From Gammaproteobacteria bacterium (GTDB taxonomy: Bacteria; Pseudomonadota; Gammaproteobacteria; Steroidobacterales; Rariloculaceae): a stretch of DNA of 64,000 nt. The stretch's first letter is position 1. Every line of letters begins with the position of its first letter. The stretch covers positions 2,830-66,829 of the forward strand of contig JAYPDM010000001.1 in the NCBI GenBank assembly GCA_038125265.1. Reading direction: 5' to 3'. Both the position numbers and the translations under genes were made by a program. Of this stretch, positions 1-22,067 are shown piece by piece. The notes under the pieces were generated by a model. That model searched no databases. It saw only the letters and a list, made by a program, of their open reading frames with translations, and was not told where the DNA came from.

Positions 1-389
1 AGTGATAATGCCAATAAAAAGGCACCTAAGACCCCACCGATTGCGGATACTGAATAAGCGGCTCCGAACGCTCTGGAGGTCTGCCCTGCCTTTGCCATTG
101 GATGGCCATCGAGGATGGTTGCTTGTGAGGCAACAGTTCCTGGAATACCAAATAAGATTGCAGGTATTGCATCAGCCGTTGAAGTAATTGCATACATTCC
201 CAACAAAAAAGAGAAAGCGCTAACAGTATCCATACTAAAGGTAAAAGGAAGCATAAGTGCCAAAGCTACAGCGCCCCCTAGACCTGGCAATACCCCAACC
301 CAAATACCAATAAAAATTCCAAGCAACAAGAACCAAAGTGCTGGGAAAGAAAAAGCTAACTGAAGGCCCTCAAAAATTGCGTCAAGCAT
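1..389 (-). CDS. TctA-family large permease of a tripartite tricarboxylate transporter; N-terminal ~129 aa, continues beyond window start
   Basis: Absent from the ORF track because it runs off the edge. Hand translation of the minus strand from ATG (389-387) gives MLDAIFEGLQLAFSFPALWFLLLGIFIGIWVGVLPGLGGAVALALMLPFTFSMDTVSAFSFLLGMYAITSTADAIPAILFGIPGTVASQATILDGHPMAKAGQTSRAFGA. This is clearly paralogous to the N-terminus of the TctA at 7447-8940 (LPGLGG, FxxPG, DGHPM motifs). The plus-strand ORFs 2-187 and 115-363 are its antisense shadows. Confidence 0.8.
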   Translation of the reverse strand, partial: MLDAIFEGLQLAFSFPALWFLLLGIFIGIWVGVLPGLGGAVALALMLPFTFSMDTVSAFSFLLGMYAITSTADAIPAILFGIPGTVASQATILDGHPMAKAGQTSRAFGAAYSVSAIGGVLGAFLLALS

Positions 390-395
390 AATGAG

Positions 396-1454
396 TTATC
401 TTACTTGATCAATGTAGTTATTTAGAAAAGCATCAACCTCTGGAGGGACATCATAAAGACCACGCATGATCATTTCACCCTCGGGAACATTTATCACTGG
501 CAAATTGAATCCATACATAAGCAATTCTTCTTCTTGATAGGCTGGATCATTGATCACCCTGATAAAGCTATCTCTTAATATTGAGATTGCCTCATCATCT
601 GTTCCTGGTGGGACCATTGCCGCATATACAATATCATTGACCCTCGGTAAGACCCATTTATACATATCAAAAAATTCCCCAGAGGGCGGCTCATTATGGA
701 GGTCTTGGTAAAATTCCATAAAGCTTGGTATGTCACTCGCGACATCTAATGCATATAGCTCCCCCTGGGCGTTCGTTCCTGGATTGTGCCAGAGGGGTAT
801 CGCTAAACCTTGCTCGACAAGAGGCTGCACAGAAAATCGATACAAGCCCAACGAGGCAACTTGAAGATCAACCTCATTCCTTCGCACCGCTGCCAATACA
901 TCAGAAGCGCCCTGGAAACCGGTGACATATTCATAGTCAACACCTAGTGCGTCTAGTGCTAACCTCCCAAGCAGATCAAAGCGTGCAATTGGATTTTGCC
1001 CGCCAAAAACTAAACTGTTTGTCGAGAGTAAATCTTCAGCAGTCTCAATATTCTCTGTGGAAACGTATGCCATATTGGGACTCATTAATCCCCCAATAAA
1101 TGGCATCTCTGAAAAATTTGCTCTTAAACCAGGCTCCTGAAGAACTGCCTCAATACCAGCGGTGGGGGAAAACATAATATCTAACCCATTAGTCTCTGCG
1201 CCCTCAACACCGAAATTCCATACTCTGGTTCCTCCACCACCTGGGATATTACGGACTACAATATTTGGATTTCCGGGAATATGATCGCCCCAGTATCGAG
1301 CAAATAATCTCACCGCAAGATCTGCTCCACTGCCAGGCGTTCTCCCTATATAAATATTTATCGTTTTACCGGAATAAAACTCAGTAGGCTCATTGCTGCA
1401 TGAACCTAAGATAAGGATTATAAAGAGAGGGAGTAACTTAAAAATATTATTCAT
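396..1454 (-). CDS. TctC/Bug-family periplasmic substrate-binding lipoprotein of a TTT transporter
   Basis: The ORF track gives 396-1502. I prefer the internal ATG at 1454, because MNNIFKLLPLFIILILGSCS is a signal peptide with an LGSC lipobox and this start removes the overlap with the upstream gene. Bug-like motifs: PGSGADLAVR and VVRNIPGGGGT. Its stop lies 6 nt before the TctA start. Confidence 0.8.
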   Translation of the reverse strand: MNNIFKLLPLFIILILGSCSNEPTEFYSGKTINIYIGRTPGSGADLAVRLFARYWGDHIPGNPNIVVRNIPGGGGTRVWNFGVEGAETNGLDIMFSPTAGIEAVLQEPGLRANFSEMPFIGGLMSPNMAYVSTENIETAEDLLSTNSLVFGGQNPIARFDLLGRLALDALGVDYEYVTGFQGASDVLAAVRRNEVDLQVASLGLYRFSVQPLVEQGLAIPLWHNPGTNAQGELYALDVASDIPSFMEFYQDLHNEPPSGEFFDMYKWVLPRVNDIVYAAMVPPGTDDEAISILRDSFIRVINDPAYQEEELLMYGFNLPVINVPEGEMIMRGLYDVPPEVDAFLNNYIDQVR

Positions 1455-1467
1455 CAGAGGGCCATTA

Positions 1468-2451
1468 TTAATAAACTTTATTTTTTGGGAGTTGCTTATC
1501 AATCACAACTCTTACTACATTGTCCCACGATGATTGAAATAGTCCAGCCCATGCCTGGTAACTTATGCCTGCAATGTGCGGTGTCATGATTATCCTATCT
1601 TTAACTTCCTTGCTAATAACCAAAAAAGGATTGTCATCCTCTGGAGGCTCTTTTTCATAAACATCAATAGCTAAGCCTTGGAATTTACCTTTTGCCATCA
1701 TATCTAAAATTTCTTTTTCATCCAGGACTCCGCCGCGCGAAGCATTGAGAATAATTGCATCATCCTTCATGATGCCTAGCTTATCCCTACTAAATAAATT
1801 TTTTGTTTCATCAATTAAAGGTACGTGAATACTTAAAATATCAACTAGTGGTAATAACTCATCCAGTGATTGAGATTTTGCAGAAAAATCTTCGTCAATA
1901 TAGTCACTCTGAATCATAGGATCATGAAAATAAACATTCGCCCCAAAAAAGTTAAATGCTCTTGCCACTGACTTACCTATATTTCCAAAACCGACTATGC
2001 CGACATTCAAACCAGTTATCTCTTTTCTGCGCTCGCCCAAGATCATCTTTCGTGCCTGATCATAATTTCCATTGCTTAACTCTTCATTGCAATAGGGCAT
2101 GCCTCTTAATAATGATATGGCAGCACCTACACAGTACTGTGCAATCGATTCATTAGATCCACCTTGAACATTTGCTACCGAGATGCCCTGCTCCTCTAAC
2201 TCAGGCCTATTTAACCTATCAACTCCCGCACCGGTAACCTGTATAAACTTACAGCTTGAACCAATAAAAAGCTTCGAATCAATTGGCTTACCTACCGCGG
2301 GTATGACTAAAGCCGAAGCATCCTTAATCTCGATATTCAAAATAGGATCATCAGGGCTCAAGTAAAGCACTCTCAAAGATTCGGGAACATTCACACCAAC
2401 GTTCGTAAAATCCTCCTCAGGTCTTAAGCAAATTATTTTATTACTATCCAT
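1468..2451 (-). CDS. D-isomer-specific 2-hydroxyacid dehydrogenase family protein (NAD-binding)
   Basis: 327 aa. Rossmann motif GIVGFGNIGKSVA. Catalytic-region pattern NASRGGVLDE ... MTPHIAG is typical of the D-2-hydroxyacid dehydrogenase family (PGDH/GyaR-like). Confidence 0.85.
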   Translation of the reverse strand: MDSNKIICLRPEEDFTNVGVNVPESLRVLYLSPDDPILNIEIKDASALVIPAVGKPIDSKLFIGSSCKFIQVTGAGVDRLNRPELEEQGISVANVQGGSNESIAQYCVGAAISLLRGMPYCNEELSNGNYDQARKMILGERRKEITGLNVGIVGFGNIGKSVARAFNFFGANVYFHDPMIQSDYIDEDFSAKSQSLDELLPLVDILSIHVPLIDETKNLFSRDKLGIMKDDAIILNASRGGVLDEKEILDMMAKGKFQGLAIDVYEKEPPEDDNPFLVISKEVKDRIIMTPHIAGISYQAWAGLFQSSWDNVVRVVIDKQLPKNKVY

Positions 2452-2794
2452 GTGAGCTCAAATCTGCAGTTTCAAAAATACAAAGTAATACTAAGTCCTT
2501 TTCGCCTTCATTTGCGGTAAAGTGCTTCAAGCCTTTTGGGACGAAAATAGTATCTCCAGCTGATACGGGTTTTGAGCCTGTCTCTGTAGTAAAGGCACCT
2601 TCGCCGCTTAGGACATGAATATATTCGTTTGAGTCAGAATGAAAATGAAATTCACGCTTGTCACCGCTTGCTGGTATGGTTACATGCCTTACTGTCAGGG
2701 ATGCACCATCATTACTGGATAGAATCTGTCTTGACTCTCTTCCTGGCAAATCAAGAAGATTAGCGTCTTTGAGTACCTTTATAATTGCTTCCAT
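2444..2794 (-). CDS. Cupin-domain protein
   Basis: 116 aa. Two-His cupin motif region HFHSDSNEYIHVLSGEG ... GDTIFVPKGLKHF. Overlaps the downstream gene by 8 nt. Confidence 0.75.
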   Translation of the reverse strand: MEAIIKVLKDANLLDLPGRESRQILSSNDGASLTVRHVTIPASGDKREFHFHSDSNEYIHVLSGEGAFTTETGSKPVSAGDTIFVPKGLKHFTANEGEKDLVLLCIFETADLSSHG

Positions 2795-2796
2795 TA

Positions 2797-3606
2797 TTAC
2801 CCAGCCTTCTTGAGAGAAATAATTTCTGCAGTTCCTCCTTGTGCAGCTTGAAGCAGCTTAAAGATCTCTAATGCCTCATCTGCAATAGAATCAGCTATAT
2901 CTTCAATCATTTTTTTACCCTTTTCAGCTGTAGCATTTTCAGGATTGCCGTACCACCCAGTTGGACAAATAGACCTAATATCTGTAAGGACCGGCTGGTA
3001 GGATTTCGATCTACGCAACTTATCCATTTTTGCACCAGGCTCATGATCTGAACTATAGTCGACCCTATCCAGATGTACTAATTCTTTCTTATACTCGAGA
3101 ATTGCTAGTGTCTCGATTTCTCCTCCATGAGTTAGACCACCACAGTCATGCCCATAAAGCTCTTGAGCCACATAGCAAGCTTGTACAGTCAAAACACTCA
3201 TACCATGATCACGATGTAGCTTATCTGCAGCGATAGAAAGCGATGGAATATTTCCTTCATGCCAGTTCACTATCAATAGATGAGTGGCGCCATGAGAAGC
3301 TGTCGAAACACAAGTTTCCTCAACAACTTTCATATAAGTCTCAGGGCTTAAACTGATAGTTCCCTCGAATGGCATATGCATTGGAGTTACTCCAAGCGGA
3401 CCACCAGGGATAACCAAACCATCAAGCTTGCGGGCAATAGCATGACAGATAACATAGGCTGCAAAAATATCAGTCCCTGTTGGTAGATGGGGTCCATGCT
3501 GCTCAGTGCTTCCCGCAGGAAGAATTACCAATGGGTTTTTCTTTAGCTGAGCCGCAATCTCAGGCTGGGTTAAATCCAAAAAGTTTCTTGTTGGTAAATT
3601 ACTCAT
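2797..3606 (-). CDS. Creatininase-family amidohydrolase (substrate unknown)
   Basis: 269 aa. N-terminal LPAGSTEQHGPHLPTGTD and later HGGEIETL match the metal-binding signatures of the creatinine amidohydrolase family. Confidence 0.75.
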   Translation of the reverse strand: MSNLPTRNFLDLTQPEIAAQLKKNPLVILPAGSTEQHGPHLPTGTDIFAAYVICHAIARKLDGLVIPGGPLGVTPMHMPFEGTISLSPETYMKVVEETCVSTASHGATHLLIVNWHEGNIPSLSIAADKLHRDHGMSVLTVQACYVAQELYGHDCGGLTHGGEIETLAILEYKKELVHLDRVDYSSDHEPGAKMDKLRRSKSYQPVLTDIRSICPTGWYGNPENATAEKGKKMIEDIADSIADEALEIFKLLQAAQGGTAEIISLKKAG

Positions 3607-3618
3607 TTTTTTCCTAAG

Positions 3619-4686
3619 TTAAATATTAGCTTTTGCTTCTTCAAATACTTCACTTAATGGAACCATTGTTCCATTTTGGTCAACTGATTTAAGTGCAGCA
3701 TATACAACTGCTAATGCAACATTAGCACTGCCGGCACTTAGTTCACAAGGCTCACCTGTCTGACAAAGATCTGCAAACATATCGAGCTCATCTAAGAACA
3801 TATTTGCCTGAGGCATGACTAAGTCCTCTCTTTTTCCGTAGCCATCAACACCCCTCTGAATGTACAGTGCCGAAGATTTATGAAGATCATCGGGAGTGTC
3901 CCAGCTACTAAAGTCTAGCTCATAGTGCATTAATCCTTTTTGACCAAATACTCTTAGTGAAAAGATCCCTGGAGAAGTCCAGCAAGATCCGATGTATGCA
4001 AGTTTGCCATCCTTAAAACGCACTAAAGTCATCGATTGATCATCCACCTCTGCTCCCACAGGTGAGAGCTTTGATGCTATTGAAGAGACCTCCTCAATTT
4101 CGCCTCCGATGTAATGAATAGTATCAAACTGATGGATTGCAAGTTGTGATAAAGGTCCACCTGGTGCTCGATCCTTGTACCATCTCCAAGTATCAGGAGT
4201 TAGCTCAAGAGCTCTTTCATTAGAAAAGTTAGCCTCAATAAATGCAACTTTACCAAGATCCCCGTTATCAATTGCTTCTCTGATCATACGCGCACCCTTT
4301 AACAACCTTGCGCTATGCCCTACCATTATCTGTACACCGTATTTGTCAACCAGCTGCTCAATTAATAATCCTGACTCAAGTGTATTTGCAATAGGCTTTT
4401 CTGTGTATACATGCTTTCCTGCTTTTGCTACTGCCTCAGCAACCGGTAAATGCTGCTCATTAGGAACAGTCAAAATTACCCCTTTGATTTCAGGATCAGA
4501 CAGAAGTTCATCTAAGCTAGCAACTGTTGGAATTCCAAACTCCGCTGTAAAAGCCTGTCTTTTCTCCTCTGAGCGAGTAAAGCCTTTAGCGATTTCAAAT
4601 TTTTCTGATTTTAATGCAGCAGCGGTTAAAACCTTTGCCCATCTACCTAAACCAACAATTCCTACTTTAATTTTTTCAGACGACAC
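3619..4686 (-). CDS. Gfo/Idh/MocA-family NAD(P)-dependent oxidoreductase
   Basis: The ORF track gives 3619-4743. I prefer the GTG at 4686-4684, preceded by AAGGAG (complement of 4692-4697) at 5-nt spacing. This yields (M)SSEKIKVGIVGLGRWA, the typical N-terminal Rossmann start, and leaves a 65-bp divergent promoter region. EKP motif: YTEKPIA. Confidence 0.85.
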   Translation of the reverse strand: MSSEKIKVGIVGLGRWAKVLTAAALKSEKFEIAKGFTRSEEKRQAFTAEFGIPTVASLDELLSDPEIKGVILTVPNEQHLPVAEAVAKAGKHVYTEKPIANTLESGLLIEQLVDKYGVQIMVGHSARLLKGARMIREAIDNGDLGKVAFIEANFSNERALELTPDTWRWYKDRAPGGPLSQLAIHQFDTIHYIGGEIEEVSSIASKLSPVGAEVDDQSMTLVRFKDGKLAYIGSCWTSPGIFSLRVFGQKGLMHYELDFSSWDTPDDLHKSSALYIQRGVDGYGKREDLVMPQANMFLDELDMFADLCQTGEPCELSAGSANVALAVVYAALKSVDQNGTMVPLSEVFEEAKANI

Positions 4687-4731
4687 GATAACTCCTTTAT
4701 TTACTTGGTTTTCTAATGTTAAGATCGTAAT

Positions 4732-4744
4732 ATTGTAATACAAT
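4732..4744. promoter_or_regulatory. Perfect 13-bp inverted repeat ATTGTA-A-TACAAT; candidate GntR-family operator
   Basis: Read directly from the sequence. It lies in the 65-bp divergent intergenic region, 8 bp upstream of the GntR ATG. It contains the GT-N3-AC core (TTGTAATACAA) typical of FadR-subfamily GntR operators. Confidence 0.5.
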
Positions 4745-4751
4745 TTTTATT

Positions 4752-5447
4752 ATGGGCGAAATTAAAGTTTTAAATCCAATTCCGCGTCTTTCATCCTTAA
4801 AAGAAGCAGTAATCAAGACTATTCGTGATGCAATAATTACTGGTCATTTTAAGCCTGGTGAAAAACTTATTGAGAAAAGATTAACTGAGGATCTTGGTGT
4901 TTCAAGAACCATACTGCGGGAAGCTATAAGTCACTTGAGTGCTGAAGGTATAGTTAAAGTGGTCCCTAACAAGGGGCCAATTGTTAGAAATTTTGAGGAA
5001 ACAGATATCTATAATTTATACCAAATTCGTATGGCACTTCTCGGTCTCTCTGCAAGACAATTTACGCAAAATATGACAGAAAAAAGCCTTTTAAAATTAG
5101 AAAAAAAATTAGAAAAAATTAAATTGGCACATAAGAACTTTGATGATGAAAAATTTATTAAATCTAAAAATGACTTTTATCAATACCTTGTAGATGAATC
5201 GGGAAATGATGATCTTATACTTCTTCTTCGCTCTTTAGAGAGCCAACTCTCTATGATGCGAAGTCTGGGAATAAAGCATCCCAAGAGATCAAGCACTCGA
5301 TCAAAGATCAGTGTCGAGAACTTACAGGCAACGTATAACATGATTCAAGCTAGAAACTATGCTGAAGCTGAGAGAATGATCAGGGCAGAAACGTTACAAG
5401 CACAGAAAGAGATAATTAATTTGTTAAGAGAACAAAAGGAAAAGTAA
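4752..5447 (+). CDS. GntR-family transcriptional regulator (FadR/FCD-type C-terminal domain)
   Basis: 231 aa. The N-terminal winged HTH GEKLIEKRLTEDLGVSRTILREAISHLSAEGIV is a classic GntR signature. The C-terminus is all-helical. Confidence 0.85.
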   Translation: MGEIKVLNPIPRLSSLKEAVIKTIRDAIITGHFKPGEKLIEKRLTEDLGVSRTILREAISHLSAEGIVKVVPNKGPIVRNFEETDIYNLYQIRMALLGLSARQFTQNMTEKSLLKLEKKLEKIKLAHKNFDDEKFIKSKNDFYQYLVDESGNDDLILLLRSLESQLSMMRSLGIKHPKRSSTRSKISVENLQATYNMIQARNYAEAERMIRAETLQAQKEIINLLREQKEK

Positions 5448-5457
5448 GGAATATAGT

Positions 5458-7164
5458 ATGAGTTGGACTGAACTAGAAACAGATGTATTGGTTATTGGGG
5501 GTGGAGTTGCGGGATGTATGGCTGCTGTTCCAGCCCTAGAAAGTGGACTTCAAGTAACAATCCTGGAAAAAGGTAAAGTATTAGATCATTGTGGAAGTGT
5601 TGGTTGTGGGGTAGATCATTACCTGACCATTATGGACTCGGGTCCAGAGTGGGATACTCCAGAATTTTTAATTAAACATGTTCCTGAGCTTACAGATGGA
5701 ATAGTAGATCTTGAGGTTACAAGTAAGCTCATCCACCAAATGCCAAGAGTTTTAAAAAAAATAGAATCCTTTGGCGTTAATTTTAAAGATCCAAGATTTA
5801 ATGACTATTACCGTCTGAAATCTTTTGGCTTACCAGGCACATACCATATAAATTTTGATGGAACAGAGTTTAAAAAGCATATAGGTCAGCAAGTCAGAAA
5901 ACTTAAAGGCAAAGTCCTTACAAGGACGATGGGCGTTCACTTGCTTGAGAAGGATAATAAAGTTTATGGTGCTGTCGCCTTTAACTTCAGAACCGGAGAA
6001 TGGTATGCCATAAAAGCAAAATCAGTTGTTATGGCGGCAGGTGAAGTTAATCGTTTATCCAAAAATGCCTCCGGTATGCCCTTTGATAGCTGGCACTGCC
6101 CATTTAACACGGGTGATGCGCATAGGATGGCATTTGATGCGGGAGCAATTTTAACAAACATGGAATTTGTGGAGACCACTCTAACTCCGAAAGGATTTTC
6201 AGCGCAAGGATTAAATGCTCTTGTAAGCGAGGGCGCGCACTTTGTCAATAAGCAGGGAGAGCGCTTTATGTTCAAATATGACGAAAAAGGCGAGAATGCT
6301 AGAAGGGCTGTCATTGCAGATGCCGTGATTAATGAGTACCTGCTAGGAAACGGGCCAATTTATGCTGACTGCAGACATTTGCCTAGCGATGTTCTTGATC
6401 ACATGGAGGCGACTCTTCAAATTGATAGATATACAATGCCAGCCTTCTATGAGCAAAAGGCCTTAAAGTTCAGGGATGAACCGGTTGAGGTTTCGATCTC
6501 TGAGTTAAGTATTCGAAGAAGTGGAGTTTACTTTAGGGGTAGTGGTCTTGCAGTTGATACCGAGGGACATTCTTCAAAAGAAAACCTTTTTGCTGCTGGG
6601 GACTGCGCATCGGTCTCTGGAGGTATTGCTGGCGCGGCAGTCCTTGGGCATATATCTGGAGAGGGTGTCAGTGCTCATGTAAAAAAAATGAATGGATCAA
6701 AATTACCAGAATTTGATGCTGATGAAATCAGTAGAATAAAAAATGAAAATGAGCATCACCTCGTTGCATCTGGTTTGAACTGGAGAGCCTTTGAGGATAA
6801 AACGCGAGAAATAGTAAGCGATTACATTGGGGTAAGAAGGTCCTCAAAATCATTAGAATTAGCAATGCAAACTTTGGCCTCTTTAGCAAATGAAGAAAGC
6901 GAGATGAAAGCCGATGATCTTCATGGACTCATGAGGGTCAATGAGACGAAAAGTATAAGGTTATCTGCTGAAGTGATGGCAAATGCTGCAATGGCTCGAA
7001 CGGAATCTAGAACCGGTTCCTCTCATTTTAGAAGCGATTTCCCAGAGACTAATGAAACAGATTGGAAAAAATTTGTTTTGGTATCAAAAAATGAAGATCA
7101 AATGAATATAAATTACAGCGATGCTAGCGAATCTCTTGCGTCAGCATTTGATAGAGAGAAGTAA
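5458..7164 (+). CDS. FAD-dependent oxidoreductase of the AprA/FrdA/SdhA flavoprotein superfamily (substrate unknown)
   Basis: 568 aa. N-terminal dinucleotide fold DVLVIGGGVAGCMAA. Distal FAAGDCAS FAD motif. C-terminal RTESRTGSSHFRSDFPETNETDWKKF resembles the R-x-E-S/T-R ... R-x-D-Y/F-P capping region of AprA and succinate dehydrogenase flavoproteins. SD AAGGAA lies upstream. Confidence 0.75.
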   Translation: MSWTELETDVLVIGGGVAGCMAAVPALESGLQVTILEKGKVLDHCGSVGCGVDHYLTIMDSGPEWDTPEFLIKHVPELTDGIVDLEVTSKLIHQMPRVLKKIESFGVNFKDPRFNDYYRLKSFGLPGTYHINFDGTEFKKHIGQQVRKLKGKVLTRTMGVHLLEKDNKVYGAVAFNFRTGEWYAIKAKSVVMAAGEVNRLSKNASGMPFDSWHCPFNTGDAHRMAFDAGAILTNMEFVETTLTPKGFSAQGLNALVSEGAHFVNKQGERFMFKYDEKGENARRAVIADAVINEYLLGNGPIYADCRHLPSDVLDHMEATLQIDRYTMPAFYEQKALKFRDEPVEVSISELSIRRSGVYFRGSGLAVDTEGHSSKENLFAAGDCASVSGGIAGAAVLGHISGEGVSAHVKKMNGSKLPEFDADEISRIKNENEHHLVASGLNWRAFEDKTREIVSDYIGVRRSSKSLELAMQTLASLANEESEMKADDLHGLMRVNETKSIRLSAEVMANAAMARTESRTGSSHFRSDFPETNETDWKKFVLVSKNEDQMNINYSDASESLASAFDREK

Positions 7165-7166
7165 CT

Positions 7167-7442
7167 ATGAGTGAAGAAAAGAAAGTCCATAATCCAATAA
7201 AAATTGACCCTGAGGTTTGTGTTAAGTGCAACCTTTGTGACTGGATTTGTCCGGGAGATCTGATATATAAAAAAGAGGATGATAGAACTACTTTGCCTGA
7301 TGTGAAATATCCTGATGAATGCTGGTACTGTGGTTTGTGTCAATCTATATGTCCGGTTGATGCAATTGAAATCATCTTTCCTGAAGAAATGATAAATTGT
7401 AAGACTGATGTTAGGAGCCTATTAGGTAAAGACGTAGAATAA
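7167..7442 (+). CDS. Small 2x[4Fe-4S] ferredoxin, AprB-like partner of the flavoprotein
   Basis: 91 aa. Two cluster motifs: CVKCNLCDWICP followed by GDLI, and ECWYCGLCQSICPVDAI. The CP-x-DL ... ECW-x-C-x-x-C-x-x-x-CP pattern is what I recall from the APS reductase beta subunit. It starts 3 nt after the flavoprotein stop. Confidence 0.8.
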   Translation: MSEEKKVHNPIKIDPEVCVKCNLCDWICPGDLIYKKEDDRTTLPDVKYPDECWYCGLCQSICPVDAIEIIFPEEMINCKTDVRSLLGKDVE

Positions 7443-7446
7443 TTCT

Positions 7447-8940
7447 ATGGACATTATTGATGCTGCCTTAAGCTCTCTAAATCTTTTACTAACATATGAC
7501 GTTATGATTATGTTGTGCATAGGTGTCATTTATGGCCTATGCGTAGGTTTAATGCCTGGACTCGGTGGCATTGTTGCAATTGCTCTTTTACTTCCCTTCA
7601 CCATAGGATTTGGTGTTATACCAACCCTTGGGCTTTTACTTGGTGCTCACATTGCTACTATTTGGGGTGGCTCAGTGACGAGCATACTGTTTAATGTTCC
7701 TGGAGCTGCCAAAAGCCTTGCTCTGGTTTTTGATGGGCATCCAATGACACGAAATGGTCAAGCGAGCAGAGCTTTAGGTGCTTCTGCCATGGCTGCCTTA
7801 CTTGGAGGTATAATTGGCGCAATTTTTTTAGCATTGAGTATTCCACTTGTAAGGCCAATCATGCTCAGCATTGGGCCAAGTGAGTACCTCATTCTCGCGC
7901 TTTGGGGTCTCAGTATCATCGCAACTTTTAGTGATGGTTCAATGATAAAAGGCGGCATTGCAACTTGTCTTGGAATGATGGCTGCCTATGTTGGTATGGA
8001 TCCAATAACCGGAACACCTAGATTTTGGATGGATTCAATTTATCTTTTAGATGGCATTTATTTCCCTGTGGCGATGATAGGCCTTTTTGCAATTTCTGAA
8101 ATGCTAAAGCTTTATGTCAAACAAACTTCTTTTGTTGAAAGAGTCGAGGGTGAAGAGACAAGCACCCTGCTTTCTGGATGCATGGACGCCTTTAAACATT
8201 GGTGGTTAGTAATTAGATCAAGCTTGTTGGGGCTTTGGATTGGGGTGCTTCCAGGAATTGGAGCGAGCGTAGGAGGAATTGCTGCCTATGCGCAAGCCGT
8301 TCAAACCTCAAAAAATCCTGAAAAATTTGGCAAGGGTGCAGTAGAAGGCGTTATTGCCCCAGATGCTACATTAGGGGCTAATGAGGGTGGAGGATTACTC
8401 CCAACCCTTGCCTTTGGAATTCCTGGAGGAGAGAGTATGGCAATCCTCCTTGTAGCTTTTCTTAGTATGGGTATTGTGCCTGGACCACAAATGCTCACTA
8501 CAGATTTAGATTTAGTTTTTGCGATGGTCTGGATAATTGTTTTTGCAAATATTTTTACTGCGATTATTGGTCTCGCCATCTCGCCTAAGCTATCAAAACT
8601 TCCAGGACTCAATCCAAACATCATGATACCGATCGTATTATCTGTTTGTCTATTCGGAGCCTATGTGACTCGAGGATATTTTGCTGATGTCATATTGGCA
8701 TTCCTTTTTGGTGTTATTGGGTATTATATGGATAAGTATAAGTTCTCAAGAGCAAACTTTGTTATTGGAATGGTCCTTGCCGAGATGATAGAAAGAAATT
8801 TACATATTTCTCTCGGCTTACATGGTAATTATTTTATTTTTACCCAGCCTGTCTCAATCTTTCTATTATTCTTATTATTTCTAACAACAGGCCTCTCACT
8901 TAAAAGAAAAAACAGCAAAAAGGAACAATTAAGTGTCTAA
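7447..8940 (+). CDS. TctA-family large permease (TTT transporter)
   Basis: 497 aa polytopic membrane protein. Motifs GLMPGLGG, FNVPGAA, DGHPM and GVLPGIGASV are typical of TctA. Confidence 0.9.
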   Translation: MDIIDAALSSLNLLLTYDVMIMLCIGVIYGLCVGLMPGLGGIVAIALLLPFTIGFGVIPTLGLLLGAHIATIWGGSVTSILFNVPGAAKSLALVFDGHPMTRNGQASRALGASAMAALLGGIIGAIFLALSIPLVRPIMLSIGPSEYLILALWGLSIIATFSDGSMIKGGIATCLGMMAAYVGMDPITGTPRFWMDSIYLLDGIYFPVAMIGLFAISEMLKLYVKQTSFVERVEGEETSTLLSGCMDAFKHWWLVIRSSLLGLWIGVLPGIGASVGGIAAYAQAVQTSKNPEKFGKGAVEGVIAPDATLGANEGGGLLPTLAFGIPGGESMAILLVAFLSMGIVPGPQMLTTDLDLVFAMVWIIVFANIFTAIIGLAISPKLSKLPGLNPNIMIPIVLSVCLFGAYVTRGYFADVILAFLFGVIGYYMDKYKFSRANFVIGMVLAEMIERNLHISLGLHGNYFIFTQPVSIFLLFLLFLTTGLSLKRKNSKKEQLSV

Positions 8941-9358
8941 AATTAACGGTGAAAAGTTTTTTATCATTTGTTTGCTCGTATTATCGATATGTTATTTTTT
9001 AGGGTCGCTCGCTTTTGGTCCAAATGCCCGCCTTTTACCATTACCTGTCTCACTTGTTTCAATCGTTCTTTGCATTCTTGCGATTGCATCCAGAAGAGAG
9101 TCACAAGTTGATAAAAAAGAAAGCATTCAGAGAGAGCTAAAGGGGATATTCCTTATTCTATTTTTTGTAGCACTGATTGCATTTGTTGGTCCCGCAGTAG
9201 GCTCAGGTATATTCTGTATGATTTATATGCTTAGAAAGCAAAATTTAAATATCTTAAAATCACTTGCTACTTCGATTTGCGTTGCTTTATTTATTTATTA
9301 TATTTTTTATCACTTCCTTCAGTTAACTCCCGATTCAAATTTTCAATTATTGTACTAG
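8933..9358 (+). CDS. TctB-like small 4-TM subunit of the TTT transporter
   Basis: 141 aa with four hydrophobic helices. It lies between TctA and TctC-like genes and overlaps TctA by 8 nt. Assignment rests on size, topology and context only. Confidence 0.6.
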   Translation: MSKINGEKFFIICLLVLSICYFLGSLAFGPNARLLPLPVSLVSIVLCILAIASRRESQVDKKESIQRELKGIFLILFFVALIAFVGPAVGSGIFCMIYMLRKQNLNILKSLATSICVALFIYYIFYHFLQLTPDSNFQLLY

Positions 9359-10341
9359 TGCGAAAAATACTTCTTACCATAATTTTCTTTGCTCAGAGCT
9401 TATTCGCTCAACAGAATCCTATAGATGGTGACTCATTAACTATTGTTGTTCCTAATGCTGCAGGCGGATTAATGGCACGCTATGCAAGAATGGTTGAACC
9501 TTACTTAGAAAAATATCTTGAGATGCAGGTAAATATCAGGATTATGACAGGCGGAGGTAACATTAGAGGAACAAATTATGTATGGTTTGCTGAGCCTGAT
9601 GGAACAACCATTGGCTTTACCTCGATCCCTTCACTTGTTTTGGCACAATTCTCAAATAGTCCCGCTGTTCAATTTGATATAGAAGAATTTAATTTTCTTG
9701 GAAGAGTTTCAACAGAACCGAGAGTATTAGTTGTGGGGGTACAATCAAATATTAAAGATGCATCAAGTCTTGTAGATTTGGGTAGAGAATTTATTTACCC
9801 ATCACAGGGCACTGATGAAGATTTTTTTACTATGATAATTCTTGCAGAAGCGATAGGCCTAGAACTTAAGCCAATCATGGGTTATAACGGCAATCCAGAT
9901 ACTGCCATGGCAATCATTAGAGGAGATGGTGATGGACAAATTACGTCCTGGCGCGCCTCGCTTGCCTCAATGCAGAACGGAGATCAAATTCCCATTCTTA
10001 ATATTGGAAGAGAGCTCTATGAAGATTTTCCAAATGTACCATCGGTACTATCTTATGCCAACAATGATGCAACCGAGGCGATGACTGCTGTTGTTGATAT
10101 GCTTGATACTCATAGAGGGTTTTTTGGTCCTCCTGGCCTAAGCGATGAGATTGTCAGTTATTTGCGCGAAAAAATATTTCTAGCCCTTAGTGACCCAGAA
10201 TTGCTAGAGCTAGCAAATCAAAATGCCCTCCCACTTGTTCCCTCCCATGGAGCAGAAGAAGCCACAAAAATCAATCAATTAGTCTTATCTGAAAGCTTGA
10301 TTATGCCTATACTTGAGTCTACCCTTAATACATTAAGGTGA
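9358..10341 (+). CDS. TctC/Bug-like periplasmic substrate-binding protein
   Basis: The ORF track gives 9277-10341. I prefer the GTG at 9358, which overlaps the TctB stop (TAGTG). It yields (M)RKILLTIIFFAQSLFAQQ, a clean signal peptide. The VPNAAGGLMARYARMV motif region is Bug-like. Confidence 0.7.
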   Translation: MRKILLTIIFFAQSLFAQQNPIDGDSLTIVVPNAAGGLMARYARMVEPYLEKYLEMQVNIRIMTGGGNIRGTNYVWFAEPDGTTIGFTSIPSLVLAQFSNSPAVQFDIEEFNFLGRVSTEPRVLVVGVQSNIKDASSLVDLGREFIYPSQGTDEDFFTMIILAEAIGLELKPIMGYNGNPDTAMAIIRGDGDGQITSWRASLASMQNGDQIPILNIGRELYEDFPNVPSVLSYANNDATEAMTAVVDMLDTHRGFFGPPGLSDEIVSYLREKIFLALSDPELLELANQNALPLVPSHGAEEATKINQLVLSESLIMPILESTLNTLR

Positions 10342-10345: not shown

Positions 10346-11434
10346 ATGAAAAGAAGAGAAATTTTATCCGGTCTTGCAGCAGCCACTGCGCTGACTGCCT
10401 GCGGTAATAATCAAAATAATACAACTACACAACTATCTACAGAGCAGTTTAACTGGAGGATGGTTACGACCTGGCTACCAAACTTCCCAGGACTGGGAAC
10501 CGGTGTTAATACCCTAGTTAAATACATAAGGGAACTTAGCCAAGGAAGGCTAAATATATCTGTCTATGGCGCAGGCGAGCTTGTTCCGGCTTTTGAAGTT
10601 TTTGATACTGTAGCACAAGGCGCAGTTGAGATGGGTCATGGAGCAGCCTATTATTGGCGTGGCAAAACAGAGGCTACGCAATTTTTTGCTACGATCCCCT
10701 TTGGTATGACAGCACATGAGATGAATGCTTGGATGTATTATGGTGATGGCCTTGATTTATGGCATGAGCTTTATTCTGAATTTAATCTAATAGGATTCCC
10801 TGCAGGAAATACTGGGGTGCAAATGGGTGGTTGGTTTAATAAACAGATCAATTCAATAGATGACCTCAGGGGTCTTAAAATGCGAATTCCTGGAATTGGC
10901 GGAGAAGTTTTAAGGAGAGCCGGTGGAACACCAATCAATCTTCCTCAATCTGAAATTTATACTGCTCTACAAACTGGAAGTATCGATGCTACCGAGTGGG
11001 TCGGGCCATATAATGATTTAGCAGCAGGTCTCCATGATGCCGCACAATACTACTACTATCCCGGATGGCATGAACCCGGTACCACCTTAGAGTGTATGAT
11101 TAATCTAGATGCGTGGTTAAGTCTACCGCCTGATCTAAGATCAATTGTGATGATTGCTTGCCAAGCTGCAAATTTAGATATGATGTCCGAATTTAATGCC
11201 AGAAATGCAAACGCATTATCAACCCTGATTAATCAAGAAGGCATTGACGTTCGACCTTTCCCAGAGGAAGTAATGGCGAGGCTAAAAAGTATCACTAATG
11301 AGGTCATTAATGAGCTAGCAACCGAAGATGCAAGGGTCGAAAAAGTATGGAATTCTTACCGAGAATTCCAAAGCGAGGCAAGATCCTGGCAGGAAGTTTC
11401 TGAGCAAGCATACATGGAAAGTACTGAGGAATAA
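10346..11434 (+). CDS. TRAP-transporter DctP-family substrate-binding protein (orphan; no DctQ/M adjacent)
   Basis: 362 aa. The N-terminus MKRREILSGLAAATALTACG looks like a Tat-type RR signal with a lipobox Cys. The body (WRMVTTW ... GELVPAFEVFDTVAQGAVEMGHGAAYYW ... TEWVGPYND) matches the DctP/family-7 solute receptor pattern. Confidence 0.8.
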   Translation: MKRREILSGLAAATALTACGNNQNNTTTQLSTEQFNWRMVTTWLPNFPGLGTGVNTLVKYIRELSQGRLNISVYGAGELVPAFEVFDTVAQGAVEMGHGAAYYWRGKTEATQFFATIPFGMTAHEMNAWMYYGDGLDLWHELYSEFNLIGFPAGNTGVQMGGWFNKQINSIDDLRGLKMRIPGIGGEVLRRAGGTPINLPQSEIYTALQTGSIDATEWVGPYNDLAAGLHDAAQYYYYPGWHEPGTTLECMINLDAWLSLPPDLRSIVMIACQAANLDMMSEFNARNANALSTLINQEGIDVRPFPEEVMARLKSITNEVINELATEDARVEKVWNSYREFQSEARSWQEVSEQAYMESTEE

Positions 11435-11437
11435 ATT

Positions 11438-12061
11438 ATGAAAATTTATTTAAATATAATATTTGCATTGGCTATGTTTGGCTGTGCCTCCAGCACGATG
11501 ATCTCAGGAGATCATTCTGATCCAACAAATAATTTATTACCTTCCCATATCGACGAATCATGGACTAGCTTTTTTTCTGGAGAAGATCTTAATCAATTTA
11601 CTTTTATCGGTGATGCGGAGTGGGAGATTATTGATAATTACGTGGAAGCTGTCGATGGATTGCCAAAATTTTTAGTAACCAATTCCGCATTTAGAGATAT
11701 TGAGCTGTATGCAGAATTTTGGACCAGCCCAGATGCCAATAGTGGTATTTTTGTCAGATGCCAAGATATACATAACATCGCAGCTGGTACATGCTATGAA
11801 GTTAATATTTTTGACCAAAGACCTGACCAAAGATACAGAACAGGAGGCATTGTAAACTTCGCTGAGCCAATGGGATTTCAAAATGCTGCAAATCAATGGA
11901 ATCAATTTCTAATACGCATCGTTGGAAATCATATTGAGGTTTACCTCAATGATGAACTCATGGTTGATATGGAGGACGATACTTTCTTTGCTGGGCCCAT
12001 TGCCTATCAATGGAGCGCAGGAACTGTACGATTCAGAAACCTCTGGTTTCGAGTTTTATAA
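11438..12061 (+). CDS. DUF1080 (3-keto-disaccharide hydrolase-like, concanavalin-fold) lipoprotein
   Basis: 207 aa. Signal peptide with lipobox (AMFGCASS). The DUF1080 pattern is W-x-x-F ... F-x-D-I/F-E-L ... NSGIF-x-R ... YE-x-x-I-x-D ... TGG ... WN ... I. Confidence 0.75.
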   Translation: MKIYLNIIFALAMFGCASSTMISGDHSDPTNNLLPSHIDESWTSFFSGEDLNQFTFIGDAEWEIIDNYVEAVDGLPKFLVTNSAFRDIELYAEFWTSPDANSGIFVRCQDIHNIAAGTCYEVNIFDQRPDQRYRTGGIVNFAEPMGFQNAANQWNQFLIRIVGNHIEVYLNDELMVDMEDDTFFAGPIAYQWSAGTVRFRNLWFRVL

Positions 12062-12063
12062 GG

Positions 12064-12597
12064 TTGGTACACATACTCAAAGACCAAAAAAATCAATTTG
12101 GTATAGTCTCAATAGCCTTACACTGGATTGTAGCTATTGCATTACTCATGATACTCCTATCAGGCAGAGAATTAGCTAATGGAAACCCTAATCTATCCTA
12201 TGATGAAATCTTACTTGTACATGCTCGCGTGGCATATTTAGTATTGCCTTTTTTTCTTTTCAGGCTCTATTGGAGGCTAAGGCAGGGCTATCCAGAATTT
12301 ACTATCTCAAAGAAACTGAGTCATTTTATTCCTCCTTTTCAATACTTTATCTTGATAAGTATATTTTTTAGCTATTTATCCTGCTACTTCATCCTAAATA
12401 TGGATACAAATTTATGGTATTTAAAGCAGGAGAATATAGCGAGCATGACCACGGAAATATCGATTCATACCGTTGTTGCGAAGACTGCCTTTTTATTAAT
12501 AATCATTCACATCATAGCTGCAAGCATACAGATCCTATTTGCAAAGAATGTAAATGCACGCAGGATGATATCATTACCTGATAATGAAAAAACTTAA
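12064..12597 (+). CDS. Prokaryotic cytochrome b561 (CybB-like di-heme membrane protein)
   Basis: The ORF track gives 12010. The first 18 codons overlap the upstream gene, so a TTG at 12064 is plausible, though the start is uncertain. Four TM helices carry the four conserved His positions (IALHW, LLVHARV, SIHTVVA, IIIHIIAA), arranged as in E. coli CybB. Confidence 0.7.
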   Translation: MVHILKDQKNQFGIVSIALHWIVAIALLMILLSGRELANGNPNLSYDEILLVHARVAYLVLPFFLFRLYWRLRQGYPEFTISKKLSHFIPPFQYFILISIFFSYLSCYFILNMDTNLWYLKQENIASMTTEISIHTVVAKTAFLLIIIHIIAASIQILFAKNVNARRMISLPDNEKT

Positions 12598-17017: not shown

Positions 17018-17019
17018 CT

Positions 17020-17988: not shown

Positions 17989-17990
17989 TA

Positions 17991-22064: not shown

Positions 22065-22067
22065 ATC

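Follow-up and report, generated by a model that had tools for sequence, protein, structure and literature searches.

What reaction is catalysed by a flavoprotein and a small ferredoxin that resemble the two subunits of APS reductase, yet are encoded between a GntR-type regulator and a TTT transporter? The initial annotation of the window (the whole 64-kb stretch of DNA analysed here) placed them in a unit spanning 4752-10341. ORF coordinates bear out the head-to-tail order of GntR, flavoprotein, ferredoxin, TctA, TctB and TctC, which overlap or stand at most 10 nt apart, but the unit proves to be larger: the genes at 1-4686, a divergent operon here, recur alongside the pair in two classes of Proteobacteria as well as in Chloroflexota. 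The features are as follows.

1..389, minus strand: second tctA (TctA2), 5' part, the rest lying beyond the window start; its translation MLDAIFEGLQLAFSFPALWFLLLGIFIGIWVGVLPGLGG... can be aligned to the N-terminus of TctA
396..1502, minus strand: second TTT solute-binding protein, TctC2-like; ORF with 61-68% identity to same-position ORFs in 14 places
1468..2451, minus strand: D-isomer-specific 2-hydroxyacid dehydrogenase (PF02826, 156 bits)
2444..2794, minus strand: small single-domain cupin, 116 aa (PF07883, 60 bits)
2797..3606, minus strand: creatininase-fold metal hydrolase (PF02633, 204.9 bits)
3619..4686, minus strand: GFO/IDH/MocA NAD(P)-dependent dehydrogenase (PF01408 and PF22725); start refined to GTG 4686
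4733..4743, no strand: operator-like palindrome TTGTAATACAA, inside the 65-bp divergent control region 4687-4751
4752..5447, plus strand: GntR/FCD (FadR-subfamily) regulator (PF00392 and PF07729, above gathering cut-offs)
5458..7164, plus strand: FAD flavoprotein, catalytic subunit, 568 aa, of an uncharacterised AprA/FrdA-superfamily family; 10 nt after GntR
7167..7442, plus strand: 2x[4Fe-4S] ferredoxin subunit, 91 aa (Fer4 above gathering cut-off); gap 2 nt
7447..8940, plus strand: TctA large membrane subunit (PF01970, 412.9 bits); gap 4 nt
8933..9358, plus strand: TctB small membrane subunit (PF07331, 45.9 bits); overlaps TctA by 8 nt
9358..10341, plus strand: TctC periplasmic solute-binding protein (PF03401, 43.8 bits); refined start
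10346..11434, plus strand: orphan TRAP solute-binding protein, TakP-like (PF03480, 190 bits); unit membership uncertain

Two of these starts were revised. The GFO gene most likely begins at GTG 4686, judging by the arrangement AAGGAG-N5-GTG, and the divergent control region is consequently 65 bp rather than 8 bp. Likewise, TctC most likely begins at GTG 9358 and not at the start of the mechanical ORF 9277-10341; from this GTG, the gene overlaps the TctB stop by 1 nt and the protein carries the signal peptide RKILLTIIFFAQSLFA. The TctC2-like ORF is weakly similar to TctC in the loci and gave no match in Pfam and NCBIfam scans at the thresholds used, and related loci have the second TctA after TctC2. 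Tight spacing continues beyond 10341, with the TRAP gene following at 4 nt and a PF06439 gene at a further 3 nt. The TRAP gene holds this position in locus L001 only, and a copy lies about 4 kb further on in L044. Its PDB matches (E 1e-102 to 4e-86) are 5cm6 and 4pet (TRAP DctP-type SBPs), 2hzl, and 7ug8, which was deposited as a ketoacid-binding protein.

The NCBIfam best match of the 2-hydroxyacid dehydrogenase is D-2-hydroxyacid dehydrogenase, under cut-off, and the creatininase-fold hydrolase is under cut-off for creatininase, MftE and IolN. For the GFO dehydrogenase, the top matches are iolG in NCBIfam (127 bits against a 355-bit cut-off) and, in the PDB, 3db2, itself of unknown function. 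The cupin has weak PDB neighbours throughout, among oxalate-decarboxylase domains and cupin-type sugar-phosphate isomerases, the top PDB match of TctC is the terephthalate-binding TphC at merely 38 bits, and GntR best matches phnR_burk (91 bits against a 271-bit cut-off).

Is this gene neighbourhood conserved? Of 51 places, 47 have the ferredoxin adjoining the flavoprotein and 48 have TctA nearby, so the linkage to a TTT system that the initial annotation proposed to check persists among MAGs of Gamma-, Alpha- and Betaproteobacteria and of Acidobacteriota. What holds, though, is a link to importers and not to TTT systems specifically: in the Chloroflexota relatives the importer is an ABC system, and an MFS gene lies next to a relative further removed. 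In Gamma- and Alphaproteobacteria the pair is accompanied by the GFO/IDH/MocA dehydrogenase, the creatininase-fold hydrolase, the cupin, the D-2-hydroxyacid dehydrogenase (which joins the pair in 20 of 51 places) and a further TTT system; here these genes make up the divergent operon on the minus strand. Chloroflexota combine the 2-hydroxyacid dehydrogenase, an ABC importer, flavoprotein, ferredoxin, creatininase-fold hydrolase (50% identical to ours), GFO dehydrogenase (42%) and cupin in a single operon, and these relatives have the family motifs RRGGVYFRGSG, CGS and FGLPGxYH. In Burkholderiales the pair comes with a TTT system and an AraC regulator but none of the four further enzymes, and the module is therefore not obligatory. 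Neither a conserved electron-accepting partner beside the pair nor a quinone-reducing membrane anchor near it is encoded.

The motif TNGTAWTACNA matches once in the 64 kb (4733..4743) and once in each of seven related loci, where it invariably sits in the corresponding intergenic region, and the GntR/FCD repressor probably governs both divergent operons through this palindrome. The presumed GntR control thus gains a conserved operator-like site, but it does not extend to Burkholderiales with their AraC regulator.

We next consider what the pair itself is. The best PDB sequence matches of the two subunits are the alpha and beta subunits of Methanothermococcus thermolithotrophicus PAPS reductase (E 3.7e-45 and 1.4e-13), and the closest solved structures by sequence are this enzyme (8A8O) and AprA. 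Foldseek also places 8A8O first (E 5e-29), with SDHA and FrdA nearly equal. The nearest characterised enzymes perform sulfur rather than carbon chemistry, a counterpoint to any reading of the pair as a carbon dehydrogenase. The family is tight, with at least 64% identity inside, at most 53% to the nearest relatives, and 255 clusters at E < 1e-30; family members with a source name all come from MAGs. At 568 and 91 aa, the subunits are indeed shorter than AprA (643 aa, 1jnr_A) and AprB (150 aa, 1jnr_B), and the ferredoxin corresponds to the ferredoxin segment of AprB only. It contains the motif noted earlier, as C18-x2-C21-x2-C24-x3-C28-P-G-D-L and E51-C52-W53-Y-C55-x2-C58-x3-C62-P. The C-terminal flavoprotein motif is also present (R-T-E-S-R...F-R-S-D-F-P at 514-529), but it is not specific to AprA, as E. 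coli SdhA has RTESRGAHSRFDFP. Every NCBIfam score is under cut-off and a literature search found no paper on the pair, which falls inside no characterised family with a known substrate. We conclude that the two proteins form a predicted cytoplasmic heterodimer, lacking a signal peptide, of a previously uncharacterised, widespread flavin/iron-sulfur family, a distant cousin of APS reductase within the large radiation that also gave rise to the dissimilatory enzyme.

The description "APS-reductase-like" fits the ancestry and subunit architecture, but not the active site. Using residue roles from the literature (PMC2211403, PMC5773532), we found that Trp-A234 is the sole active-centre residue of APS reductase retained, as W212; Asn-A74, His-A398, Arg-A317/Leu-A278 and, together with the entire RFIPFR loop, Arg-A265 are lost, as are the dicarboxylate ligands of Sdh/Frd. 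The catalytic Arg of FrdA (R287) and SdhA (R286), which AprA lacks, is retained as R283, and its 14-residue spacing from the next conserved Gly is unchanged. Because the AF2 model is moderate (pLDDT 72) and poor precisely in the active-site loops, these equivalences rest on alignment. Invariant basic residues (R119, K245, R282, R283, R353, R354, R360) lie in or beside segments aligned with AprA and Sdh active-site residues, which fits an anionic substrate. An R283-type Arg is common across the radiation, including relatives in sulfur-scavenging contexts, and so alone is no proof of C-H chemistry.

The reading we prefer, to which we give an even chance, is that the pair is no APS or PAPS reductase but an acceptor-linked dehydrogenase whose substrate, within a catabolic module, is an imported organic anion or a near derivative of it. 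By analogy with family chemistry, a hydride would leave a C-H next to an acidic group, in a C-C or C-N oxidation, for FAD N5, with R283 as the catalytic base, and electrons would exit singly via Trp53 and two [4Fe-4S] clusters to a partner. The adjacent high-affinity importer would deliver the substrate, and the pair would perform one step alongside the GFO/IDH/MocA dehydrogenase, creatininase-fold hydrolase, cupin and D-2-hydroxyacid dehydrogenase. If so, it would belong to an undescribed breakdown pathway, possibly for sulfonates.

The leading candidate class of substrate, with about one chance in three, comprises small carboxylate-bearing organosulfonates such as L-cysteate or 3-sulfopropanoate. 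Five loci of one lineage carry genuine suyAB (sulfolactate sulfo-lyase) inserted between GntR and the flavoprotein, and their SuyB is 75% identical to that of P. versutus and 65% to that of C. pinatubonensis, both from established suy/hps contexts. The oxidation product could then be sulfopyruvate or (R)-sulfolactate, destined for SuyAB. Further hints are a TauE gene adjoining one Chloroflexota operon, PhnS2 as the NCBIfam top match of the Chloroflexota ABC binding protein, and a DASS transporter upstream in four loci. No suyAB occurs in the 64-kb window, and these genes were found in that one lineage only. To our knowledge, none of the known C3-sulfonate pathways needs a creatininase-fold hydrolase or a cupin.

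The same suyAB insertions could instead indicate a sulfite dehydrogenase, namely a trimmed AprAB that oxidises cytoplasmic sulfite freed by desulfonating enzymes such as SuyAB, either to APS (with AMP) or directly to sulfate with water as nucleophile; the enzyme would detoxify sulfite while passing electrons to the respiratory chain. AprAB and PAPS reductase are the closest characterised relatives, Trp-A234 and the AprB-type C-W-x-C ferredoxin are retained, and in the five suyAB loci the SuyZ exporter, which in Paracoccus goes together with suyAB, is missing. TauE and DASS genes are found nearby on occasion, and other branches of the radiation reside in sulfur-assimilation or sulfur-scavenging clusters (PMC8477390). 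We nonetheless consider this unlikely: no sat gene turned up in the scanned ORFs of the window, the window and most loci lack suyAB, and what constantly adjoins the pair is a solute importer with a dedicated regulator rather than a desulfonating enzyme, with Burkholderiales reduced to just importer, AraC and pair.

It is quite improbable that the enzyme performs sulfur-centred chemistry on an imported organosulfur compound through an AprA-like N5 adduct, converting a sulfinate (3-sulfinopropionate, cysteine sulfinate) to a sulfonate or cleaving a sulfate ester reductively, or that it is an enoate-type reductase fed by low-potential ferredoxin. AprA-type ancestry with W212 at the flavin, a 2x[4Fe-4S] subunit suited to low-potential electron input, and the lack of a nearby quinone-reducing anchor would all be accommodated, and TTT systems for sulfur-containing dicarboxylate analogues are reported from Advenella (PMC5373536). 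However, the sulfite-stabilising residues of AprA are missing, the NAD-dependent dehydrogenases conserved alongside point to an oxidative pathway, and the hosts resemble aerobic heterotrophs in that the window encodes sucCD and the full haem pathway but carries no anaerobic marker.

Finally, an ordinary APS/PAPS reductase for sulfate assimilation, or a paralogue of Sdh/Frd or L-aspartate oxidase, is highly improbable despite source annotations of 'adenylylsulfate reductase subunit A' or 'succinate dehydrogenase/fumarate reductase flavoprotein subunit' and Pfam domains common to these families (FAD_binding_2, 124.8 bits, and Succ_DH_flav_C, 54.5 bits, above gathering cut-offs), being disfavoured by 23-27% identity, by NCBIfam scores far from their cut-offs (aprA 111.9/641.75, PRK06854 216.7/557, sdhA_frdA 174.5/567.3, nadB 120.2/452.75 bits), by the failure of all but one defining residue of each family, and by a partner that is not SdhB-like in a window whose scanned ORFs include no sat, cysC or qmo. 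The earlier statement that sulfate-reduction genes are missing nearby likewise stands for the sat, apr, qmo and dsr families, none of which occurs in the ORFs scanned over the 64-kb window, a scan that left aside three dcw-cluster ORFs and the hemC/hemD ORFs.

How does the pair compare with named systems? AprBA of A. fulgidus (1JNR/2FJA) shares its superfamily branch, the FAD alpha and 2x[4Fe-4S] beta organisation, the insertion carrying Trp-A234, a ferredoxin C-W-x-C motif consistent with Trp-B48, and a C-terminal helical domain with a two-residue insertion after R-x-E-(S/T)-R. In contrast, the flavoprotein is only 25% identical and lacks the active-centre residues listed above, the ferredoxin has neither the beta-sheet nor the tail segments of AprB, and the neighbours are importer genes rather than sat, qmo or aprM. 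MtPAPSR (8A8O; PMC10322725) is similar in size (571 and 104 aa, without the AprB tail), but at 27% identity it retains the AprA catalytic residues that our family does not, its 3'-phosphate residues Lys120/Arg121/Ser122 align with Thr-Tyr-His, and its context is sulfate assimilation rather than a catabolic importer operon. The AprAB-like paralogues of Clostridia, Negativicutes, Deltaproteobacteria and Archaeoglobi (DiSCo, PMC8477390) also combine a tail-less AprB-like subunit with an AprA-like one that has gaps in its capping and helical domains. They adjoin sat, cysC/D, asrABC and TusA and have been proposed to act in sulfur assimilation in anaerobes, whereas our pair, whose hosts are presumably aerobic heterotrophs, adjoins a TTT or ABC importer as well as NAD-dependent dehydrogenases.

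Sdh/Frd and L-aspartate oxidase (NadB) share the fold (TM about 0.66-0.69) and the catalytic Arg, including the equivalent NadB residue, and the capping domain is of SdhA-like length. They differ in identity (23-25%) and in His232, Thr234, Glu245, His355 and Arg390, which are not conserved; the flavoprotein has no His in the flavinylation column, and its partner is a small 2x[4Fe-4S] ferredoxin instead of SdhB with no membrane anchor.

With the Paracoccus cysteate/sulfolactate pathway and its SuyR-SuyAB-SuyZ system, and with sulfolactate uptake by TTT systems, the module shares a D-2-hydroxyacid dehydrogenase, TTT import and, in one lineage, orthologous suyAB under a GntR regulator; in C. pinatubonensis a TctC gene directly follows suyAB. 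The differences are that suyAB is absent from the window, SuyZ is missing, our GntR and SuyR are not orthologous (27% identity across 82 residues), and the known pathway offers no counterpart of the GFO, creatininase-fold and cupin enzymes. The TcuABC system for tricarballylate utilisation differs in its membrane Fe-S protein TcuB, in TcuC, which is not a TTT system, and in TcuA, on whose NCBIfam model our flavoprotein scores only 55.6 bits against a 369-bit cut-off. Even so, as a functional analogy it resembles the minimal Burkholderiales arrangement: an importer of its own, a flavoprotein from this superfamily and an Fe-S electron-transfer partner suffice to convert an unusual polycarboxylate to a central metabolite.

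The FAD flavoprotein and its dicluster ferredoxin partner are encoded within a compact plus-strand gene run that faces a divergently transcribed operon.

Gene layout around the flavoprotein-ferredoxin pair
1-4686, minus strand: divergent operon encoding a GFO/IDH/MocA dehydrogenase (GFO), a creatininase-fold hydrolase, a cupin, a D-2-hydroxyacid dehydrogenase (2-HADH) and a second tripartite tricarboxylate transporter (TTT) system
4752-5447, plus strand: GntR regulator (ORF list); Pfam PF00392, 60.1 bits, and PF07729 (FCD), 55.6 bits
5458-7164, plus strand: flavoprotein, 568 aa, 10 nt after GntR; above the Pfam gathering score
7167-7442, plus strand: ferredoxin, 91 aa, 2 nt after the flavoprotein; above the Pfam gathering score
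7447-8940, plus strand: TctA, 4 nt after the ferredoxin; PF01970, 412.9 bits
8933-9358, plus strand: TctB, overlapping TctA by 8 nt; PF07331, 45.9 bits
9358-10341 (likely), plus strand: TctC, with a signal peptide; PF03401, 43.8 bits

The head-to-tail run of six genes with tiny gaps or overlaps described in the initial annotation is present in the ORF list, and all six products score above their Pfam gathering thresholds. The TTT assignment holds, with TctA, TctB and TctC domains encoded by contiguous genes, as does that of the GntR protein, whose N-terminal winged helix-turn-helix and C-terminal FCD domains place it in the FadR (FCD) subfamily. The extent proposed for the operon (4752-10341) stands for the run itself, but its 3′ end cannot be defined by spacing because genes stay densely packed downstream of 10341: one for a TRAP solute-binding protein begins after 4 nt, and a PF06439 gene follows after 3 nt more. 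TctC most likely starts at GTG 9358, given a 1-base overlap with the TctB stop codon and the clean signal peptide that follows. Likewise, GFO most likely starts at GTG 4686, with AAGGAG in front, and the control region separating this start from that of GntR is then 65 bp long. Bases 1-389 are the start of the second tctA.

Within the control region, at 4733-4743, lies the palindrome TTGTAATACAA, which suits the T.GT...AC.A-type operator of FadR (FCD) subfamily GntR regulators. This is the sole match to TNGTAWTACNA in 64 kb (chance expectation 0.34; at least one match in 29 of 100 shuffles), and it is convincing because its position is conserved across loci. Each of seven related loci (L001, L003, L004, L020, L044, L046 and L049) carries TNGTAWTACNA exactly once, always in the homologous intergenic region, and other loci have the variant GTAATA-N3-TATTAC there. 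This variant is sometimes doubled, as in L024 and in Alphaproteobacterial loci with two sites. We infer that the palindrome is a candidate FadR-type GntR operator, which would govern both divergent operons. In Burkholderiales, an AraC regulator takes the place of GntR.

Several other features of the region deserve mention. The TRAP gene (10346-12597 stretch) encodes an orphan TakP-like solute-binding protein whose best PDB matches are 5cm6, 4pet and 7ug8, and no dctQM genes lie beside it. Downstream, genes for a PF06439-domain (‘3-keto-disaccharide hydrolase’) lipoprotein and for cytochrome b561 follow, in an order kept only in the near-identical locus L001. At 12584-14058, a 160-aa secreted-looking ORF (no Pfam match) and an APH-family phosphotransferase gene overlap their neighbors by a few bases and extend the same-strand run, bridging the cytochrome b561 gene and hemA. 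Scanned ORFs beyond about 14 kb are all housekeeping. The haem biosynthesis cluster at 14096-25172 (hemA, hemC, hemD, hemB, hemL, hemE, HemQ-like, ferrochelatase and HemY-type amine oxidase) includes a HemQ-like gene of the chlorite-dismutase family (22068-22781) and has a histidine kinase/response regulator pair inside it (19268-21054). This cluster represents the coproporphyrin-dependent route, which has been reported mostly from Gram-positive bacteria, yet the close relative L001 carries the label Gammaproteobacteria. The window holds one tRNA and no riboswitch or other RNA clue.

The pair was originally called APS-reductase-like, a description that is fair for its ancestry and alpha/beta architecture because of the PDB ranking, the tree and the sequence identities, but that does not extend to the active site. 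A PDB sequence search ranks the PAPS reductase of M. thermolithotrophicus (MtPAPSR, 8A8O) first for both subunits (8a8o_A, E 3.7e-45; 8a8o_C, 1.4e-13), followed by AprA and then by L-aspartate oxidase and complex II flavoproteins. An AlphaFold model of the flavoprotein is of moderate quality (pLDDT 72, pTM 0.82) and poor in the active-site loops, and served for fold ranking only; Foldseek returned the same order with this model, with SDHA and FrdA nearly equal to 8A8O and AprA. In a neighbor-joining tree with relatives drawn from a 1.8-billion-protein library, the flavoprotein belongs to a tight clade, itself nested in a large uncharacterised radiation of which AprA and PAPS reductase are also part, with SdhA, FrdA and NadB as the outgroup. 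The flavoprotein shares 25-27% identity with AprA and PAPS reductase, and 23-25% with SdhA, FrdA and NadB.

Curated models give the same picture of a protein standing apart. The top NCBIfam model, PRK08275 (NF006131), is itself titled as an unnamed ‘fumarate reductase/succinate dehydrogenase flavoprotein subunit’, and the protein falls outside it with 321.9 bits versus a cut-off of 587. Scores are also below the NCBIfam cut-offs for aprA (TIGR02061, 111.9 bits versus 641.75; PRK06854, 216.7 versus 557), sdhA_frdA_Gneg (174.5 versus 567.3) and nadB (120.2 versus 452.75), and far below those of the tfrA and tcuA models. A curated family assignment was rejected, as NCBIfam and Pfam matches reach superfamily level only.

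To compare active sites, AprA of A. fulgidus and MtPAPSR were rebuilt from HMMER alignments and, together with SdhA, FrdA and NadB of E. coli K-12, aligned with family members and intermediates. The first five entries below are AprA-defining residues (PMC2211403).

AprA residues and their aligned counterparts in the flavoprotein
Trp-A234: retained as W212
Asn-A74: Leu56 in its place, within GVDHYL
Arg-A265: lost; six-residue RFIPFR loop deleted
His-A398: Tyr358, in a longer Arg-rich loop, IRRSGVYFRGSG
Adenine clamp Arg-A317/Leu-A278: Ile286/Val256 instead
AMP contacts Val-A273/Gly-A274: Gly251/Leu252 instead

The 3′-phosphate pocket of MtPAPSR (Lys120/Arg121/Ser122; PMC10322725) is absent as well, with ‘GKRS’ of that enzyme aligned with ‘GTYH’ here, and the AprA catalytic residues are gone too. 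One residue recalls the Sdh/Frd enzymes. R283, which is invariant in the family, occupies the column of SdhA R286 and of FrdA R287, for which catalytic proton transfer has been proposed (PMC5773532). It is separated from the following Gly by 14 residues, as in SdhA, and its column is Thr in AprA and PAPS reductase. Other Sdh/Frd residues (FrdA numbering) are missing: His232, Thr234, Glu245 and His355 are replaced by Thr243, Lys245, Asn253 and Leu350, the segment carrying Arg390 is deleted, and the column of the flavinylated His44 is occupied by Gly46. We also rejected covalent flavinylation at the protein's own His44, two residues upstream of Gly46, as the Chloroflexota group has Arg there. 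The R-T-E-S-R...R-S-D-F-P stretch read in the initial annotation as an AprA mark is present, but SdhA shares this region, and so it is not AprA-specific. As judged from these alignments, the active site resembles that of neither AprA nor Sdh. Every family member has Cys45 (CGS motif), which adjoins the alignment position of the flavinylated His in SdhA, and outside the family this Cys is found in the Chloroflexota group alone; Cys50 does not vary within the proteobacterial family (Cys45 and Cys50 codons at about 5590-5607).

The ferredoxin carries the expected cysteine patterns, with eight Cys in two CxxCxxCxxxCP motifs that correspond to the ferredoxin segment of AprB only. Its profile runs collinear from residue 1 with 8a8o_C and with 1jnr_B from A. 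fulgidus AprBA, and polyferredoxins outrank both. The sequence C52-W53-Y-C55 is invariant in the family ferredoxins and their relatives, and W53, placed by offset rather than by alignment, is consistent with an equivalent of the electron-relay residue Trp-B48. The three-stranded beta-sheet segment of AprB and its AprA-wrapping C-terminal tail are absent, and the protein stops about 25 residues past the last Cys (91 aa versus 150 in AprB). The beta-subunit core is 86-106 aa at every member with a clear start codon.

Within the family, flavoproteins from MAGs of Gamma-, Alpha- and Betaproteobacteria and of Acidobacteriota are no less than 64% identical to one another (64-75% across proteobacterial classes), and the nearest relatives outside are 53% identical (locus L061) and then 44-47%. 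The family is plentiful in metagenomes, as 794 of 8000 scored candidates pass E 1e-10. All members with a source name are MAGs, with no isolate, and a second homology search with a Burkholderiales member as query returned MAG-derived names only. Source annotations conflict (‘adenylylsulfate reductase’ versus ‘succinate dehydrogenase’); the MAG-only membership probably accounts for both this inconsistency and the missing function. A literature search that included TTT, AprA-like, sulfolactate and PRK08275 themes found no publication on the family or cluster, and a North Sea organosulfonate preprint makes no mention of the cluster.

A plasmid collection yielded no family members, the best matches being PRK08275-type homologues of ~30% identity on rhizobial, Paraburkholderia and cyanobacterial plasmids. 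These make up a DUF971 - flavoprotein - ferredoxin - HEAT-repeat cassette (Sinorhizobium fredii pSfreNXT3a, L066, 6676-9917), with LLM monooxygenases and an SsuA/PhnD-family binding protein encoded alongside. This uncharacterised plasmid branch is apparently linked to sulfur scavenging. Elsewhere, two tandem flavoprotein paralogues with one common ferredoxin gene (L060, 7062-11027; Chloroflexi RBG_16_48_8) are flanked by RES/Xre toxin-antitoxin and Tn7-like TnsA, Mu-type transposase and TniB genes, and these flanks suggest mobility of the pair. In the Alphaproteobacterial locus L025, a 338-aa ORF without a Pfam match (6769-7785) lies right upstream of the flavoprotein gene.

Genomic linkage was counted in 51 places, comprising the window and 50 loci of about 17 kb. 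The ferredoxin gene follows the flavoprotein gene in 47 of these and TctA is near in 48, most of the exceptions being truncated contigs. The possibility that the pair would come apart from its transporter in related genomes is not borne out, because the pair-TctA neighborhood persists. The reported lack of sat, aprM, qmo and dsr is confirmed: the ORFs covered by scans of the 64-kb window include no sat, apr, qmo or dsr family, and aprM, sat and qmoABC are absent both there and at the loci examined.

In Gamma- and Alphaproteobacterial lineages, the pair is accompanied by GFO, the creatininase-fold hydrolase, the small cupin, 2-HADH and the second TTT system, in at least three different arrangements. 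Chloroflexota relatives, which carry the private motifs of the family, have a single operon for a ThrC-like PLP enzyme, 2-HADH, ABC importer, flavoprotein, ferredoxin, creatininase, GFO and cupin (the last three 50%, 42% and 31% identical to those of the window), followed by a beta-hydroxyacid dehydrogenase and 2-oxoacid dehydrogenase E1/E2. This gene content indicates that the enzyme set is kept across phyla and that the importer type is exchanged. In L056 (1486-6639 and 13862-16564), a relative, P0121 (44% identical to the window protein), lies beside an MFS transporter, with a PrpD/MmgE protein, aconitase large and small subunits and two creatinase_N/M24 hydrolases as neighbors. M24 hydrolases again adjoin the pair in L061, L064 and L065. 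The minimal form, in Burkholderiales, consists of tctABC, the AraC regulator and the pair only, and extra neighbors in Alphaproteobacterial, Acidobacteriota and Rariloculaceae loci include nothing recurrent or informative.

Structural matches for these proteins are uninformative: the best for TctC is TphC, at only 38 bits, the best for GFO is 3db2, whose function is unknown, and those of the cupin are weak and scattered. Inositol-type (IolG/IolN), uronate/aldarate, ascorbate, ectoine/creatinine, opine and 3-keto-glycoside routes were considered for the divergent operon, and none was adopted because none fits every member.

A pointer to sulfonates comes from five loci of one lineage (L002, L003, L005, L024 and L043), in which genes for a split UxaA-family pair are inserted precisely at the junction of GntR and the flavoprotein. 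The large UxaA-family subunit shares 75% identity with a Paracoccus versutus protein with the reference context GntR-suyA-suyB-(sulfate exporter) and an adjacent hpsN-like gene, and 65% with a Cupriavidus pinatubonensis protein in an hpsN-hpsO cluster with a TctC gene right after. The inserted genes encode orthologues of SuyAB, the (2R)-sulfolactate sulfo-lyase. The window lacks suyAB, and no locus of the module has a homologue of SuyZ, the exporter accompanying suyAB in Paracoccus. Weaker pointers are a TauE gene adjoining one Chloroflexota operon, four loci with an upstream DASS transporter, PhnS2/AfuA-like ABC components, a phosphonate-associated regulator as the best, sub-threshold NCBIfam match of GntR, and the sulfur-scavenging contexts of other branches of the radiation. 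We know of no C3-sulfonate pathway that employs a creatininase-fold hydrolase or a cupin.

What reaction might this pair catalyze? Two cytoplasmic subunits, one carrying FAD and the other a dicluster ferredoxin, are encoded together and are invariably associated with a high-affinity importer. Residues for binding APS and sulfite are lost, the Frd-type catalytic Arg and Trp-A234 are retained, and four other catabolic enzymes are co-conserved. We propose that the imported anion, or a close derivative, would be oxidised at a C-H bond adjoining one of its acidic groups, with hydride transfer to FAD N5, that R283 would act as a base during this transfer, and that electrons would exit via W53 and both clusters toward an acceptor. 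This general reading, of a dehydrogenase with an organic-anion substrate, has in our judgment an even chance of being correct. Invariant Arg and Lys are numerous in segments aligned with active-site residues, which suggests a polyanionic substrate.

A scheme that would fit suyAB, 2-HADH and TTT begins with aspartate-oxidase-like oxidation of L-cysteate to sulfopyruvate, which would be reduced to (R)-sulfolactate and then cleaved by SuyAB. Alternatively, 3-sulfopropanoate or sulfosuccinate might be desaturated, and subsequent hydration would release sulfite. More tentatively than the general dehydrogenase reading, it is possible that the AprAB scaffold has been re-tooled as a dehydrogenase that works without oxygen on some abundant natural organosulfonate, or, as a variant, as an AMP-independent cytoplasmic sulfite/sulfinate dehydrogenase. 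That the pair is a trimmed sulfite dehydrogenase would suit its ancestry, but we consider it unlikely. Slightly less probable again is an enzyme that acts on an organosulfur substrate by sulfur-centred or reductive chemistry. An ordinary member of a known family is very improbable, as the curated scores lie under their cut-offs; as initially supposed, the pair cannot be assigned to a characterised enzyme.

The family is widespread and mis-annotated, and is now delimited enough for direct biochemical testing: a six-enzyme module is defined, its importer is exchanged between phyla, and two solute-binding proteins can be screened for ligands. In sulfur-cycle surveys based on counts of aprA-like genes, there is a risk of mis-scoring these proteins, which differ from true aprA products by lacking the RFIPFR loop, Asn-A74 and His-A398, and by having an RRSGVYFRGSG motif and a 90-aa beta subunit. 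If the substrate is a sulfonate, the module would contribute a new oxygen-independent flavin/Fe-S step to marine and freshwater organosulfur mineralisation, and uncultured marine and freshwater Proteobacteria and Chloroflexota would gain a new sulfonate-mineralisation entry feeding SuyAB.

Other tail-less AprAB-like paralogues have been described in the DiSCo paper (PMC8477390), but those occur in anaerobes with sulfur-assimilation neighbors, a context that differs from that of the present family. Sdh/Frd flavoproteins have an SdhB-type partner, whereas the partner here is a 91-aa dicluster ferredoxin. The fold and the two-subunit design are familiar; what is new is the active site, along with the conserved enzyme module and the link to an importer.
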